Sequence record: MF158040
Source of the DNA: Shigella phage Sf13
DNA length: 64,000 nt
Strand: one strand, 5' to 3'
Shown: positions 8,129 to 19,584 of the stretch, in pieces
How positions within the stretch are numbered: the stretch's first letter is position 1
Layout: the number at the start of each line of letters is the position of its first letter
Notes under the pieces: model-generated
Database searches by the model: none
Seen by the model: only the letters and a program-made list of their open reading frames with translations
Told to the model about the DNA's origin: nothing
Position numbers and translations under genes: made by a program

Positions 8129-9594
8129 TATTTGTTTGCCTTATTAGCTGTGCTTGGGTCTTTAGCTGAAGGAGTTTTAGCAGTCCCTTCTCCAGCAGTT
8201 TGATAACCATCACCAGAACGACTTTGAGTGTTTGGAGATAGTTTCTCAGATACTGGTTTAGACTCATCAGCAGGTTCAAGGTCAAGATATTCTCTAAGCT
8301 TGTCAGATAATGGTTTGTCAACTTCCAGAGCACCAACTGCAACTGTCTTCTGAATGAATGATGCAATAGCTTCAAGGTCTGGTGTCTCAATATCATCATA
8401 CACAATTTCTACGTGTTCTTCATCATCCCACATATTTAGTGCATAAGTCTGAGCAACCAAATCACGGTTAATTACATTCTTCACTTGCTTCAGAAGAATA
8501 TCAACTGACATTGCCAGTAAGCTTGTCTTAGAATCTGCCAGAGAGAATGAGCCATACTTTGACTGTCCCATAGCAAGAACATCAGACATAAACGCCATCA
8601 TAATTTGCTTAGAGTATCTATCAATGATAGAACCTGTATCATAAGCTTTAGCGCCCTGTCGAGAAACTAATGAGAACTCAAAGATATCTTCTTTAGTTTC
8701 TGGGTCGATAAATCTAGGCCAAATTAAACCTGCTCTGTCATTAGCAATTAAATCATTTACTACTTCTTGGCAGTATTTAACAAAAGCTTTCTTTTCAGGT
8801 TCTGCATCTTCACCTAAGTAATCAGGTGGAAGACCAATCTTTGGCATACCTACTAAGTCTCTGGAAACACCAACTGCTTCAAACTCTTCAATTTGAACTT
8901 TGTATTTCCAAGGAACATAAGCATTAAGCAATGGTGAACGTCCCTCTGGGTTACCGTATTCATCGTCATACTTGAACAATAAGAATTTACTTCTGGGAAG
9001 CTTTCTTGTCAATGGTTGTTCACCAAGATTAATTGCTCCTGCAATATGGGAAACATTACGCAGGTTCTGTCTAACACCAATAACTTTTCTATAGTCAGAG
9101 TCAAAGTACCATTTGTCTAATGTAGTCTGATTACGGATTGGTAATTTAGCCCAACCAATTAAACCATCATTATATTTTGAAGGGTACTTACCTTTCTTAC
9201 CTTGACGTTTCTTATAAACTTTCTCGTTTACACAGAAACCGTAAGTACAGAATGACATTACAGAGTTAATAAAGTCAGCCCAATCGTGCTCCATGTCATT
9301 CATTAGTGAGTTAAAGAAATTAGCCCTTTCAATCATCTTGGCATCTTTCTCTTTTCCCTTCGGTGGTACGAATCTCCAGTTAACCTTTCTGACAAACATC
9401 TTAATAATATTTACAGAGGCTGCTACTGAAGGGTCTCTCATCATAAGTTGGAAAGTCTTAATACTTTCTGGGAATCTTAAAGCCTGTCTAGGTTCTTCAT
9501 AGATTCTTCCTGAGCGAACTTTAAGGCCAAGACTCCCAACCTCACCCATTCTGAATGGAGGAAGGCTTTCTTGTGTTTCTGTGATATCTGCCAT
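8128..9594 (-). CDS. portal protein (488 aa)
   Basis: ORF track; size and position immediately downstream of large terminase. Confidence 0.55.
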   Translation of the reverse strand: MADITETQESLPPFRMGEVGSLGLKVRSGRIYEEPRQALRFPESIKTFQLMMRDPSVAASVNIIKMFVRKVNWRFVPPKGKEKDAKMIERANFFNSLMNDMEHDWADFINSVMSFCTYGFCVNEKVYKKRQGKKGKYPSKYNDGLIGWAKLPIRNQTTLDKWYFDSDYRKVIGVRQNLRNVSHIAGAINLGEQPLTRKLPRSKFLLFKYDDEYGNPEGRSPLLNAYVPWKYKVQIEEFEAVGVSRDLVGMPKIGLPPDYLGEDAEPEKKAFVKYCQEVVNDLIANDRAGLIWPRFIDPETKEDIFEFSLVSRQGAKAYDTGSIIDRYSKQIMMAFMSDVLAMGQSKYGSFSLADSKTSLLAMSVDILLKQVKNVINRDLVAQTYALNMWDDEEHVEIVYDDIETPDLEAIASFIQKTVAVGALEVDKPLSDKLREYLDLEPADESKPVSEKLSPNTQSRSGDGYQTAGEGTAKTPSAKDPSTANKANK

Positions 9595-16347: not shown

Positions 16348-16512
16348 ATAATCTTTTTAACAACCTATGTAACAACTATAACACTATTTTTTAGTGTCTG
16401 TCAAGAGGTTTTTTAAAATAATTTGATTTATTTCAGAAAACTTCTTTTTCGTTTCTATGTAGAACATATTAAAGGGTATTAAACACTTTGTCAATACCCT
16501 TTTTAAAACTTT

Positions 16513-17928
16513 TTACCAATCGTAGCGTTCAACCATTACTGCTTTGAGCATTACGCTGATAGGGTCAAACTTCTCACCACCAAGCAAAGCTTTTAAAGTG
16601 GCTGGAGAGAAACCAGATACCATTGCTACACCGTTATCCTTTACAGACACTTCGCAAGTACCATTACGGTTTGCTAAGTACCAGAATACCAGTTGTGGCA
16701 TCTCATATCCAGCTTTCTTGTACTTTTCTTGAATTGCTTCAAAGTTAGTACGACCATCTGCTCCATCAACCTGATTAAACTGCATATCAGAGAAGATGAT
16801 AAGCTTACTAGGCATCTCTTTCTGAGTCAAGTTGTTTTTAACACCAATCTCAAGGATTCTTGCAAAAGCAGCTTGTAGGTCAGTTGAACCATACTCTACA
16901 TGACTCTTCACTTGACGTAAGCGAGTCTGTAAATCACCACTCAATGTGATGAAGTGAGGTCTGCTAGAGTAAACCATCAATTCATCTTTAAAGCAACCTG
17001 TATTACGTTCTGAAACGTACAGGGCTAAAGATACACCAATGTCTAGCGCTGTAACAGAACCATGTCGCTCCCAAGTCATAGATGAAGATACATCTGCCAT
17101 GCACAGAATGTTTTCACCATCTTTCATCCAGTTTGGTAAAGCTTTCCACTGCTCATTTGCAACGGTTGCATTACCATAGCCAACTGACTTTGTAATGTCG
17201 TAAGGGTAGACTGCACCAGCATTAATCTTTGTCTCACCTTTAGTCAGTGCTGCAATGTATGCTGCATAACGCTCACCATCTTTACGACTAAAGAGTTTTT
17301 GATAACGTGCAGCAGCCAGTGAAGGAAGCTTGCTGTAATCAATTTCTCCGAACTCATTTGCTGAAATCTTTTGTTCAACAGTATCAGACAGTGCTGACAG
17401 AAGAACTCGATACTGCTTCTCTGAAAGATTTGCAAACTTACAGAAACGACGAACAAAACGCATGTGTCGTGATTTTACTCGTGGTAACCATTTTGCTGCT
17501 AGAGCCGATGTTGCAGGGTCTAACAGTGCAGCTTCTAAATGCTTGAAAGCATCTGTTTCGTAACGTGTACCAACAAAGATTTTAAAGTCGTCATAACGAC
17601 CTAAATCAGAAACCTTGTCCATGATACGTAACACTTGGAACTCATCAAGAATCCCGTCAGAGATTGCTTTAGTAAGAGTATAACGGAACGCTTTACGCTC
17701 ACCCATACCTTCTCGTGCATCTCGCATATGTAACAGGATTCGAACTGCTACATCAATATCTTCTCGCATTGCCTTGTAAAACAAGTTTGGAAGAACTTCT
17801 ACGTTTGTTCTGCTTGAACCAGCAGCTTTGTAGAAATCTACCAGTGCAGACATTGAAGAGGTGTGGTTAACAGCACCGTTTTCAGTTAAACCTGCATGTA
17901 AATGCGAGTGTTTAAATAATTCGCTCAT
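16513..17928 (-). CDS. DUF2828-like protein with C-terminal von Willebrand factor A (vWA/MIDAS) domain, 471 aa
   Basis: N-terminal TENGAV...ALVDFY motif that I recall as DUF2828-like; C-terminal DVSSSM (DxSxS MIDAS) motif; ATG start verified. Confidence 0.55.
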   Translation of the reverse strand: MSELFKHSHLHAGLTENGAVNHTSSMSALVDFYKAAGSSRTNVEVLPNLFYKAMREDIDVAVRILLHMRDAREGMGERKAFRYTLTKAISDGILDEFQVLRIMDKVSDLGRYDDFKIFVGTRYETDAFKHLEAALLDPATSALAAKWLPRVKSRHMRFVRRFCKFANLSEKQYRVLLSALSDTVEQKISANEFGEIDYSKLPSLAAARYQKLFSRKDGERYAAYIAALTKGETKINAGAVYPYDITKSVGYGNATVANEQWKALPNWMKDGENILCMADVSSSMTWERHGSVTALDIGVSLALYVSERNTGCFKDELMVYSSRPHFITLSGDLQTRLRQVKSHVEYGSTDLQAAFARILEIGVKNNLTQKEMPSKLIIFSDMQFNQVDGADGRTNFEAIQEKYKKAGYEMPQLVFWYLANRNGTCEVSVKDNGVAMVSGFSPATLKALLGGEKFDPISVMLKAVMVERYDW

Positions 17929-18004
17929 ATTAATTCTCTCTCGTTAGAATGTTTTGGTGAGACAGACTCTAGCGTTTAATTTAGAACCTGTCAACACCTT
18001 TTTA

Positions 18005-18376
18005 TTATTTTTTCAGAGTTGCTACAGCAGAGAACGTTGGTTTGTTCTCCTGTGCTCCCTGCCCTCCATTCTCAGAAGGTTTTTTACTATCTGCTGCAAT
18101 TGCTTTCATCTCACCTGCTGAGTGAGTCATGATAGTTTTACCAGCTTCCATCATGGACTTTAAGTTTACATCTTCAGCCTTTAATCCGAACTCTGCAAGC
18201 TTGTCAGCATTACGTGTGACAATGGCCTCAAACAGCTTTGCAGCATACTCTGCTGAGTTATCAATAGTCAACTGTGCCTTGACCAGTGAACTCTTGTTAC
18301 GTGAGCCTTTGGGTCTACCTGATGGGTTACCAGATTGACCTTTCTTGAATTGGCCTTTGTTTGTTCGTTTCGTCAT
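18005..18376 (-). CDS. hypothetical basic protein with N-terminal GNPSGRPKG motif
   Basis: ORF track; ATG start; motif resembles N-termini of some phage small DNA-binding/small-terminase-like proteins. Confidence 0.45.
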   Translation of the reverse strand: MTKRTNKGQFKKGQSGNPSGRPKGSRNKSSLVKAQLTIDNSAEYAAKLFEAIVTRNADKLAEFGLKAEDVNLKSMMEAGKTIMTHSAGEMKAIAADSKKPSENGGQGAQENKPTFSAVATLKK

Positions 18377-18550
18377 TCTTCACCTCTTTTAAGACCTCTT
18401 AAAAGGCTTTTAAGATAAGAGATAGATATCCAGAAAGATATCTGTTTAAATAGCCTTTTTAGAAGAGTCTTTTAAGTAATCTTCTAAGTATTTATTAGGC
18501 TACACGTTGTCAAGAGGAATGTCAAGTAAATTTTTTAGTTGCAATACTTC

Positions 18551-18579
18551 TTGACTTGTTGTATGGATTACTGTACCAT
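18551..18579 (+). promoter_or_regulatory. candidate sigma70-like promoter for plus-strand block
   Basis: TTGACT, 17-bp spacer, TACCAT upstream of first plus-strand ORF. Confidence 0.3.
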
Positions 18580-18623
18580 CTTACTAAAGCTGTAGGTCTG
18601 CCTTTATCTACAAAGGAGACTTA

Positions 18624-18785
18624 ATGAGAAACAATTCAAAATTGAAGACAGGTAATAATACCAATCACTGTAAGGAATCAAAGCGGGTAGAATTACTCTA
18701 TTACAAATCCTCTGAAATTGGTTTGTACCTATACTTTCAAAATTATAGACGACAAGAGGATTATTTATGTGTAGCTCCCAACTAG
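18624..18785 (+). CDS. hypothetical small protein (53 aa), not in ORF track
   Basis: ATG preceded by AAGGAG RBS 6 nt upstream; first gene of plus-strand block. Confidence 0.35.
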   Translation: MRNNSKLKTGNNTNHCKESKRVELLYYKSSEIGLYLYFQNYRRQEDYLCVAPN

Positions 18786-19000
18786 AAATCACAGATATTA
18801 TTGATTTATACCAAACTGCAAAGAGTCATGGGTATATCACTTCAATTGGAAAGAATAAGCACTATGATGCACTAACTGGTATGTATTTCAGAGCAATAGC
18901 TCAATCTAGTGAACAGGTTCTAATGGTTTCTTCCAGTGAATTTGCTTCATTTCTCTATTGCAGCAAGATTATCAATCGTAGGAGAACTGATAAATGTTAA
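18767..19000 (+). CDS. hypothetical protein (77 aa)
   Basis: ORF track; ATG with AGAGGA RBS. Confidence 0.4.
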   Translation: MCSSQLEITDIIDLYQTAKSHGYITSIGKNKHYDALTGMYFRAIAQSSEQVLMVSSSEFASFLYCSKIINRRRTDKC

Positions 19001-19584
19001 ACGTAAGTTTTAATTATAATGGTGATGGGTCTGTATCAATCACTTCACCATATTCTGATGACCTTCTTAAAGAGTTGGTTAATCAATGTGAAAGAGGTAT
19101 GCACTACGTACCTGATTCATTTAAACAGAAAACAATTGCAAATAACTTGATGCGTGTTACTGTTCAGGCAATGAACCCAGATTATAATATTAATGGTGAA
19201 AGCCCATATTCACTCATGGCTCTAGGTGCTAATAGTGAATTTAAACTGGTATGCCATGATTCAGAAACATTCTTCAAAGTATTCTCAAATCTTATCCACA
19301 ACGCTAAATACAGTTATGTAGCTGGGTCAACATCGTTCTCTCCAGCAAACTACACATGTGTTGTGATTGATAACCTCAGAGAGTCTGAAGATACTTCCAC
19401 AGAGATTTCTTTCGATGTGAACACCTCTCCAGAGTCCACTCCAAGTAATGACTTCGACATGAACTATGCGTTATCTCTGAGTAAGAAATCTGATTTCATT
19501 GAGTACGTCAATGGATTTGGATTTAAGTTGGATGAGACAATGAATCTCAAAAAACTTAAAAACATGCTTAAGACTATGGCTTAA
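18994..19584 (+). CDS. hypothetical protein (196 aa)
   Basis: ORF track; ATG with GGAGAA RBS 7 nt upstream; followed by terminator. Confidence 0.5.
   Translation: MLNVSFNYNGDGSVSITSPYSDDLLKELVNQCERGMHYVPDSFKQKTIANNLMRVTVQAMNPDYNINGESPYSLMALGANSEFKLVCHDSETFFKVFSNLIHNAKYSYVAGSTSFSPANYTCVVIDNLRESEDTSTEISFDVNTSPESTPSNDFDMNYALSLSKKSDFIEYVNGFGFKLDETMNLKKLKNMLKTMA

Follow-up and report, generated by a model that had tools for sequence, protein, structure and literature searches.

Ro60/Rsr proteins are accompanied by Y RNAs, namely YrlA and YrlB in Salmonella and Yrn1 in Deinococcus (Chen et al. 2014, PMC4201824). Among phages, the Ro60 of Thermus phage phiLo binds the phage-encoded Y-like RNAs Yrl1 and Yrl2 as well as host PNPase (PMC12135203; PDB 9l5y, 9kop). 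We analysed a stretch of 64,000 nucleotides (nt) of Shigella phage Sf13 (MF158040), hereafter the window, whose positions are counted from its first letter and in which an open reading frame (ORF) for a 471-residue protein stands next to a transfer RNA (tRNA) array. With moderate confidence, we propose that this protein and four small RNAs encoded downstream of it, S1, S2, S3 and L1, make up a Ro60/Y-RNA-like module as its protein half and its RNA halves.

The protein side of this proposal has a direct precedent. Bas63 (Escherichia phage JohannRWettstein), a Felixounavirus, was studied in the PhageMaP preprint of 2024 (PMC11482910), in which deletion of gene 130 led to tiny plaques on a host carrying Ppl, a defence consisting of a single ATPase + PHP protein, and complementation restored plaquing. 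The gene was dispensable on hosts without the defence, and T7 was rescued on Ppl by gp130, either supplied from a plasmid or inserted in the T7 genome (PMC11482910). The authors likened gp130 structurally to Ro60, argued from its tRNA adjacency and speculated that some of the downstream "tRNAs" are Y RNAs (PMC11482910). Comparison of sequence and gene order identifies the window ORF as the syntenic ortholog of gp130: both proteins have 471 residues and share 83% amino-acid identity, and bas63_0130 is followed by tRNA-Pro, Glu, Met, Asn, Tyr, Asp and so on, which is the downstream tRNA order of the window. The window belongs to a Felix O1-like myovirus, and the closest records across the region are Shigella phages ESh20 (99.3% identity) and Sf17 (98.9%). 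Since the Ro60 and tRNA-adjacency idea has been published for gp130, the protein-level insight is not new; the initial annotation of the window, which read the ORF as a Ro60-type protein placed by a tRNA array, is correct in its interpretation, yet this had already appeared as a hypothesis together with an anti-defence phenotype. Anti-Ppl activity is that of the 83%-identical ortholog; for the window protein itself it is putative.

16513..17928, minus strand: ORF of the Ro60-like protein, 471 residues, ATG start, ortholog of Bas63 gp130

The motifs TENGAV, ALVDFY and DVSSSM, from which the initial annotation read the DUF2828 family and a C-terminal vWA domain with a MIDAS (adhesion site dependent on metal ions), are all present in this ORF (residues 15-20, 28-33 and 279-284), and both assignments were confirmed. 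An N-terminal helical-repeat region of about 270 residues matches Pfam DUF2828 (PF11443; E 5.2e-27, 95.2 bits against a cut-off of 29), and is followed by a vWA/MIDAS domain that matches DUF7788 (PF25043; residues 275-455, E 5.9e-44, 150.4 bits, cut-off 27.1). All 36 aligned homologs, which are 41-88% identical to the window protein, match both families, and the five MIDAS residues D279, S281, S283, T349 and D381 are invariant among them, as are many Arg and Lys residues. Additionally, PHROG 850, "RNA-binding protein", matches over the full length (E 3e-178, residues 1-471 on profile positions 1-476). Homologs were found by tblastn in 708 phage records, covering phages of Enterobacteria, Vibrio, Aeromonas, Campylobacter, Listeria, Staphylococcus, Enterococcus, Bacillus and Mycobacterium as well as cyanophages, under labels such as "RNA-binding protein", "Ro-like RNA binding protein", "vWFA protein", "DUF2828" and hypothetical. 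The record of Aeromonas phage Aeh1 notes a likeness to Arabidopsis T31B5.30, and the protein family therefore has eukaryotic members. In the literature on DUF2828 we found nothing relevant to this gene, and newer phage essentiality preprints are silent on it.

The AlphaFold2 model of the protein (predicted local distance difference test score 90.1; predicted template modelling score 0.89) shows an alpha-helical repeat ring closed by the vWA domain. In a Foldseek search against the PDB, the top nine matches were all Ro60/TROVE proteins; the full-length structural match is Ro60, and vWA-only proteins match the vWA part. The predicted structure thus has a Ro60-like fold with an intact MIDAS, and in this respect the Ro60-type architecture proposed by the initial annotation was borne out.

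The candidate RNA halves are as follows, with scores from the covariance model R1 described below.

16108..16175, minus strand: S1, short form, 68 nt; stem AGACCAA/UUGGUCU; ACAGCAA at 16163-16157; R1 25.4 bits
15949..16012, minus strand: S2, short form, 64 nt; stem AGACCGU/ACGGUCU; ACAGCAA at 16000-15994; R1 31.8 bits
15460..15532, minus strand: S3 ("module A"), short form, 73 nt; stem AGACCAA/UUGGUCU; ACAGCAA at 15520-15514
15320..15444, minus strand: L1 ("module B"), long form, 125 nt; R1 87.3 bits, E 6e-13 (L1 is itself a seed)

These four small RNAs lie on the strand of the ORF, 337-1193 nt downstream of it and within the first 1.1 kb of the array, interleaved with tRNA-Glu, Met, Asn, (Tyr), Asp and Lys; S1 sits between tRNA-Glu and tRNA-Met, and S2 between tRNA-Met and tRNA-Asn. 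Common to all four is the pattern AGAAGACC(A/G)..ACAGCAA...(U/C)GGUCUGG. A strict regular expression (at least 7 perfect pairs, then NG) misses the window copies by one base, and the shared stem sequence located them. S3, which R1 did not reach at E<=1, is based on the consensus fold of 23 Felix-like variants, in which L1 contains compensated pairs and a core-less second module has the same stem and motif.

In L1, a bulged closing stem and ACAGCAA (15432-15426) surround an anticodon-like hairpin and a circularly permuted tRNA-like core, which a structural scanner places at 15339-15389 in the order T-arm, closed acceptor hairpin, D-arm. Its T-arm (15373-15389) is the sole one outside called tRNAs in the window, and is followed by the hairpin ACACG-UUACGG-CGUGU and then by the D-arm. 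In Bas63, where the long form (L002 5280-5412) overlaps the opposite-strand annotated coding sequence (CDS) bas63_0137, the hairpin is ACUCG...CGAGU, a change that is compensated in the hairpin reading and breaks conventional tRNA acceptor pairing. The 311-nt L1 region is 86-100% identical in 238 Felix-like records, compared with 79-80% for the protein gene at the DNA level. We also considered 15365-15439 as a tRNA-Thr(GGU). Under the Rfam tRNA model, whose gathering score is 29, this segment scores 28.8 bits; its acceptor has two mismatches and a proper D-arm is lacking, and ARAGORN makes no tRNA call there. The candidate was rejected on account of the acceptor mismatches, an "anticodon loop" that varies in sequence and length (6-7 nt) among the 23 Felix-like variants, and an acceptor 3' strand that covaries with a downstream strand.

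The first clue to a wider family came from mycobacteriophage Krypton555, in which the Rfam YrlA model matches at 38.3 bits, below threshold, in an unannotated gap 142 nt past a "Ro-like" DUF2828 gene and in the permuted order T-arm, closed stem, D-arm. A plain T-arm...D-arm DNA pattern was discarded, as 34 of its 75 matches were ordinary tandem tRNAs; a structural scanner that demands a T-arm, a perfect closed acceptor hairpin and a D-arm was therefore used instead, with tandem junctions as a control. It found 54 units outside tRNAs and passed only 1 of 670 genuine tandem-tRNA junctions. Among the loci selected by the protein, 13 independent lineages carry such a unit; all of these lie on the strand of the gene, and they are nearer to it than uniform placement predicts (Fisher combined p = 3e-4). 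In the shared design, read 5' to 3', the first strand of a 6-8-bp closing stem is followed after 1-3 nt by the motif [U/A]C[A/C]GCAA; an A-rich linker leads to the tRNA-like core, and a further linker to the 3' stem strand and UG.

From 18 seeds of independent lineages sharing this design, we built the covariance model R1 and searched both strands of the window and of 80 DUF2828 loci, 1.43 Mb in all (E<=1). All 137 matches lie on the gene's strand. After matches overlapping tRNAs were dropped, their density was 9.7 per 10 kb in the first 500 nt downstream of the gene, 3.7 per 10 kb in the 500 nt upstream, and 0.05-0.64 per 10 kb beyond 2 kb. A match lies within 500 nt of the DUF2828 gene in 41 of the 80 loci, and further long forms abut the gene at -11, -12, +27, -53 and -98 nt. 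The weaker matches, those of Listeria phage A511 and Campylobacter phage F355 among them, are AU-rich and about 60-70 nt long; in every one of the 31 short matches inspected, the stem has 7-10 bp and a sequence specific to the lineage, the motif keeps a fixed offset, and UG follows the stem. A separate regular-expression and pairing scan found 66 elements on the gene strand versus 7 on the opposite one. Among loci without tRNAs, 19 of 39 retain an element within 520 nt of the gene. Long forms (at least 40 bits) occur in 19 loci, all with tRNA genes, and in none of the 39 tRNA-less ones (IMG/VR loci L008-L082), and short forms occur in both kinds of locus; the confinement of long forms to tRNA loci suggests that they captured tRNA sequence or are used only beside phage tRNAs.

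The structure was supported by covariation. In 18 matches that were not seeds, 93.4% of cells are paired, compared with 60.3% in shuffles and 36-45% with slid partners, and double changes occur in 21 of 23 pairs, including all eight of the closing stem. The covariation score is 0.728 against 0.198 for shuffled alignments (reached by none of 500 shuffles). Six more cultured lineages (Cronobacter phage S13, Aeromonas phage Aeh1, a Synechococcus phage, Bacillus phage Thrax3, Enterococcus phage EFDG1 and a Staphylococcus phage) all carry R1 matches, 26 of 26 on the gene strand, mostly in unannotated gaps touching the gene or over implausibly long "tRNAs" of 113-122 nt, so that elements are present in 11 of 11 cultured lineages sampled. 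The RNA family is linked tightly, and on the same strand, to the DUF2828 genes of phages that infect Proteobacteria, Firmicutes, Actinobacteria, Cyanobacteria and Campylobacter. The loci L087-L161 did not provide a clean negative control for R1: tandem tRNAs give low scores in them, real elements are also present, and the loci are too short to show whether a DUF2828 gene is nearby.

Several existing annotations overlap these elements. In Cronobacter phage S13 (L163 4896-5138), a "tRNA-Ser" of 121 nt and a "tRNA-OTHER" of 113 nt overlap long forms scoring 69.6 and 42.8 bits, and in Aeromonas phage Aeh1 (L164 7151-7272) a "tRNA-Val" of 122 nt overlaps a long form of 46.0 bits; these three are probably mis-annotated Y-like RNAs. 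The CDSs bas63_0137 and bas63_0138 of Bas63 (L002 5249-5401 and 5413-5523, opposite strand) and the small CDS0026 of the Staphylococcus phage (L168 4483-4572), all labelled "hypothetical protein", lie over small-RNA regions and are probably spurious gene calls. Recognition of a family often mistaken for over-long tRNAs or small opposite-strand ORFs would improve phage genome annotation. It also opens the questions of what DUF2828 proteins bind, whether the anti-Ppl activity is RNA-dependent, and why many large phages hold tRNA-like non-tRNAs in their arrays.

By analogy with Rsr/YrlA/YrlB (PMC4201824) and with phiLo Ro60/Yrl/PNPase (PMC12135203), we infer a mechanism in which the protein would bind the stem and motif of the small RNAs, as Ro60/Rsr binds the Y RNA stem, and either the variable interior or, in the long form, the tRNA-shaped domain would tether or decoy another factor. 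Candidates for this factor may include a host exoribonuclease such as PNPase (cf. RYPER complexes), tRNA-recognising enzymes or a tRNA-targeting defence nuclease. Such a ribonucleoprotein (RNP) could tune RNA decay or shield the phage from defence. The anti-Ppl activity of the ortholog may belong to the protein alone, or to the protein loaded with host RNAs.

A number of points weigh against the proposed module. Pfam TROVE (PF05731) has no match in the 36 family members at E<=10 with HMMER, vWA_Ro60 (PF25045) matches weakly in 9 of them (best E 4.7e-4), and Ro60 is absent among the PDB-sequence matches of phmmer and of the family profile. We therefore regard the protein as having a Ro60 fold, yet not as a TROVE-family member by sequence definition; the TROVE part of the initial annotation had no sequence-level homology behind it in HMMER searches. 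On the RNA side, binding of S1-S3 and L1 by the protein is argued by analogy, and the window elements, being inside a tRNA operon, may in principle serve as processing spacers. R1, to which the covariation alignment was fitted, has roughly calibrated E-values. Short forms score just 23-34 bits each, so that it is their position, their strand and inspection that lend them weight, and R1, with its A-rich interior, could gain score from an A-rich coding strand. No element was found in 21 of the 80 loci, many of which are truncated. Finally, gp130 alone overcomes Ppl, from a plasmid or in T7, which has none of these RNAs, so that the one known phenotype does not require the small RNAs.

This last point is also what favours a protein-only anti-defence function, in which the Ro60-like ring and vWA/MIDAS bind and block Ppl or a needed host factor, and the RNAs are unrelated passengers. 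We regard this explanation as unlikely, albeit the strongest of the rivals. Restored plaquing on Ppl hosts by gp130 alone fits it well, and vWA/MIDAS is a classical protein-protein adhesion module. However, it leaves unexplained why a motif-bearing, covarying, same-strand RNA family should accompany the gene in phages of five bacterial phyla, tRNA-less loci included, and why the whole Ro60 ring is conserved rather than the vWA domain alone. The two readings would be compatible if RNA-free and RNA-bound roles both exist, as in Rsr.

The role in tRNA or small-RNA handling suggested by the initial annotation has to be divided, and here the array itself matters.

11656..16347, minus strand: array of 25 tRNA genes called by ARAGORN, all on one strand
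15708-15788, minus strand: tRNA-Tyr(GUA)-like, possible 26th tRNA; Rfam 22.8 bits; U.U T-stem mismatch

The array opens with tRNA-Pro, 165 nt past the ORF stop codon. The adjacency and the common orientation were as described; the count of about 27 was slightly high, there being 25 plus the one tRNA-Tyr-like sequence. ARAGORN misses the latter because of the T-stem mismatch, and the Bas63 record has a tRNA-Tyr annotated at the orthologous position; it may be a 26th tRNA, functional or decaying. Beyond the window, homologs in unrelated phages are likewise linked to same-strand tRNA arrays, the check that the initial annotation had proposed. In 80 IMG/VR loci picked by protein homology alone, a tRNA lies within 10 kb of the homolog in 41, every tRNA being on the homolog's strand, and tRNAs occur in about 27% of loci per 1-kb bin over the first five bins downstream, compared with 6-14% in upstream bins. 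In distant cultured phages the strand linkage is kept and the gene order is variable: same-strand arrays stop upstream of the DUF2828 gene by 1.5 kb in Listeria phage A511, 3.4 kb in KVP40 and 456 nt in Bacillus phage Thrax3, a tRNA-Met lies 236 nt upstream on the same strand in Campylobacter phage F355, and Enterococcus phage EFDG1 has same-strand tRNAs upstream.

These data could be taken to mean that the protein is a direct tRNA handler, which binds phage or host tRNAs for quality control, chaperoning or protection from anticodon nucleases and hence heads the array. Over the first 5 kb, tRNAs are indeed 3-4 times commoner on the downstream side of homologs than on the upstream side, and every one shares the strand of the homolog; the gene has an array within 0.2-3.4 kb in A511, KVP40, F355, Thrax3 and EFDG1, and the central cavity of Ro60 binds misfolded small RNAs (PMC12135203). 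Nevertheless, 39 of 76 metagenomic homolog loci have no tRNA in the fetched flank, and tRNAs therefore cannot be the obligatory partner; half of these loci retain a small RNA, which makes the small RNA, not the tRNA, the closest conserved neighbour. We therefore consider the small RNAs the better-supported candidate partner, since an element is kept in 19 of the 39 tRNA-less loci, and a tRNA handler improbable.

It is also conceivable that the "small RNAs" are not genes, and are instead degenerate tRNA remnants, tandem-tRNA junctions, terminators or RNase processing sites. The near-threshold tRNA score of 15365-15439, the low scores that R1 gives to genuine tandem tRNA junctions and the occurrence of elements inside arrays point in this direction. 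Against it stand the near-complete rejection of real tandem junctions by the structural scanner, the compensated change in Bas63 together with a 6-7-nt "anticodon loop", and short forms that have no tRNA part at all and are found in tRNA-less loci. Moreover, the L1 region is better conserved than the protein gene and 8 of 8 closing-stem pairs covary, so we hold this explanation to be very improbable. A virion or assembly protein, such as a vWA co-chaperone or structural component, is hardly tenable: the homolog of Erwinia phage pEa_SNUABM_12 is labelled "putative structural protein" and MoxR-vWA chaperone pairs occur in jumbo phages (PMC7824862), but there is no MoxR/AAA+ partner nearby, the gene stands in an early/tRNA region with its own predicted sigma-70-type promoter, the full-length match is Ro60 and not chaperone vWA proteins, and Bas63 gene 130 is dispensable on hosts without the defence.

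The remaining features of the locus concern its transcription and processing.

17966..17994, minus strand: sigma-70-like promoter, TTGACA-17-TAGAGT; consensus scan 10/12 positions, pattern match only
16471..16502, minus strand: 12-bp hairpin beginning 10 nt past the ORF stop codon; weak T-tail
16494-16466, minus strand: sigma-70-like promoter, TTGACA-17-TAATAT; consensus scan 10/12
16404-16375, minus strand: sigma-70-like promoter, TTGACA-18-TATAGT with extended TG; consensus scan 11/12
15534..15585, minus strand: two conserved hairpins directly 5' of S3; consensus fold of 23 Felix-like variants

The first promoter-like site lies 38 nt upstream of the ORF start codon. The hairpin past the stop codon may be a terminator and shares ground with one of the array promoters. 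The promoters predicted in 16375..16494 would drive the tRNA/small-RNA array, and no structured RNA was found in the AT-rich spacer that holds them; the 165-nt spacer past the ORF was accordingly ruled out as an RNA gene, since it consists of two consensus promoters and a hairpin. In the hairpins next to S3, pair 33/48 is AU in 13, GU in 4 and GC in 6 sequences, and they are possibly a processing or termination signal. The ORFs beside the 471-residue gene have no assigned function or are tail/Hoc-like or endolysin ORFs; no RNA-repair gene and no RtcB/RtcA is among them, and they were for this reason dropped as parts of the module.

Other structured RNAs were observed in the same searches. In the 248-nt gap between tRNA-Ile and tRNA-Arg (14676-14916, minus strand), there are weak Rfam matches to permuted transfer-messenger RNA (tmRNA; 29.9 bits) and alpha-tmRNA (20.3 bits), which probably stem from the T-arm and acceptor of tRNA-Ile. 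A second permuted tRNA-like subtype, whose motif is GUUACUUC and not ACAGCAA, is present in uncultivated phage contigs of large size, 67-353 kb (L096 1953-2062; L104 7609-8084, three copies; L110; L145 2308-2418; L153 2794-3560), with no DUF2828 homolog within the short fetched stretches; in L145, a tmRNA encoded by the phage (86.7 bits) stands about 100 nt downstream of the unit. In Listeria phage A511 (L084, reverse complement of DQ003638.2), the stretch between the array's last tRNA and gp57, the DUF2828 homolog, contains a full-length match to ROOL RNA (8459-9010, plus strand; 87.5 bits, E 3e-16) that falls slightly short of the gathering score, 99.1, and an unannotated tRNA (9299-9369, plus strand; 52.5 bits) overlaps the annotated gp58 CDS.

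Comparison with known RNAs places the elements outside existing families. No Rfam 15 family reaches its threshold on them, and a known Y RNA adjoining the ORF was rejected, as neither YrlA nor a Y RNA is found at threshold in 10500-19500 or in the narrow gap. Rfam YrlA (RF02553, gathering score 69 bits) does not match L1 even with lax filters; its sub-threshold scores elsewhere include that of Krypton555, where only the tRNA-like core (model positions 24-84) aligns, and 40 and 36 bits in L104. T4 stable RNAs species 1 and 2 (rnaC/rnaD), tried as family members, gave no match. Permuted tRNA and two-piece tmRNA genes share the order T-arm, acceptor 3' strand, loop, acceptor 5' strand, D-arm, and weak Rfam matches to permuted tmRNA families occur in the same arrays. 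In contrast to these genes, the phage elements have a closing stem and motif, and no tag frame, resume codon, conserved anticodon loop or CCA-end context.

The short forms resemble the Class I RNAs of Dictyostelium (RF01414), in which an 11-nt motif CCUUACAGCAA directly follows the 5' stem strand and CUGU stands at the 3' end (Kjellin et al. 2021, PMC7919456). Both are about 60 nt long and of low GC content, with an end-joining stem kept in structure and not in sequence, a motif ..UUACAGCAA right after the 5' strand, CUG(U) after the 3' strand, a variable interior and clustered genes. The Dictyostelium-only Rfam model (Dicty_Class_I_RNA) gives 25.7 bits to S2, 17.6 to L1, 25.4 to L034 (1535-1592) and 24.9 to L045 (1276-1332), and its best phage matches, at about 25 bits, fall exactly on short forms beside DUF2828 genes; phage elements about 33 nt past DUF2828 stop codons are matched at 25 bits. 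However, no phage match reaches the gathering score of 41.5, an RRM protein, Rnp1A, is the known partner of Class I RNAs, and the authors of the Class I study found none outside Dictyostelia (PMC7919456). The resemblance is striking and does not amount to membership, and it may be convergent. A bolder and quite doubtful reading would join DUF2828 proteins with "stem + UUACAGCAA + UG" small RNAs in an RNP lineage of ancient origin, which would run parallel to Ro60/Y RNA and extend across phages and eukaryotes. In that case, the phage short forms would be true relatives of Class I RNAs, the eukaryotic DUF2828 proteins would be their missing partner, and the long forms would be a tRNA-shaped decoy or handle subverting host RNA decay or tRNA-directed immunity. 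Whether Class I RNAs have a Ro-like partner is a further question that follows.

The closest parallels remain Ro60/Rsr and the Y RNAs. The likeness lies in a helical-repeat ring closed by vWA/MIDAS, in same-strand small RNAs within a few kb of the gene (about 4 kb), in RNA 5' and 3' ends that pair as a stem beside a short conserved motif, and in the occurrence of one RNA type with a T-arm, closed acceptor stem and D-arm next to a smaller type without a tRNA-like domain. The differences are equally specific. The phage protein has no detectable TROVE signature and no RtcB/RtcA neighbour, the phage motif is [U/A]C[A/C]GCAA whereas that of Y RNAs is GNCGAAN0-1G, and the elements stand in up to four or more tandem copies, with the YrlA model below threshold. 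Unlike YrlA, L1 has its point of permutation between D-arm and anticodon arm and retains a closed anticodon-like hairpin. The Ro60 of phiLo is an annotated TROVE-domain protein with only 13-16% identity to the window protein and, unlike the DUF2828 family, with known RNA binding, PNPase contact and structure. Bas63 gp130 is the nearest relative, alike in length, sequence and place directly upstream of tRNA-Pro/Glu/Met. Whereas the PhageMaP work named no RNA, we located four candidate RNAs in the window, which, in contrast to its speculation, are not among the annotated tRNAs. They belong to a candidate partner-RNA family that has no entry in Rfam 15, appears to be undescribed, and reaches well beyond the Felix O1-like phages.

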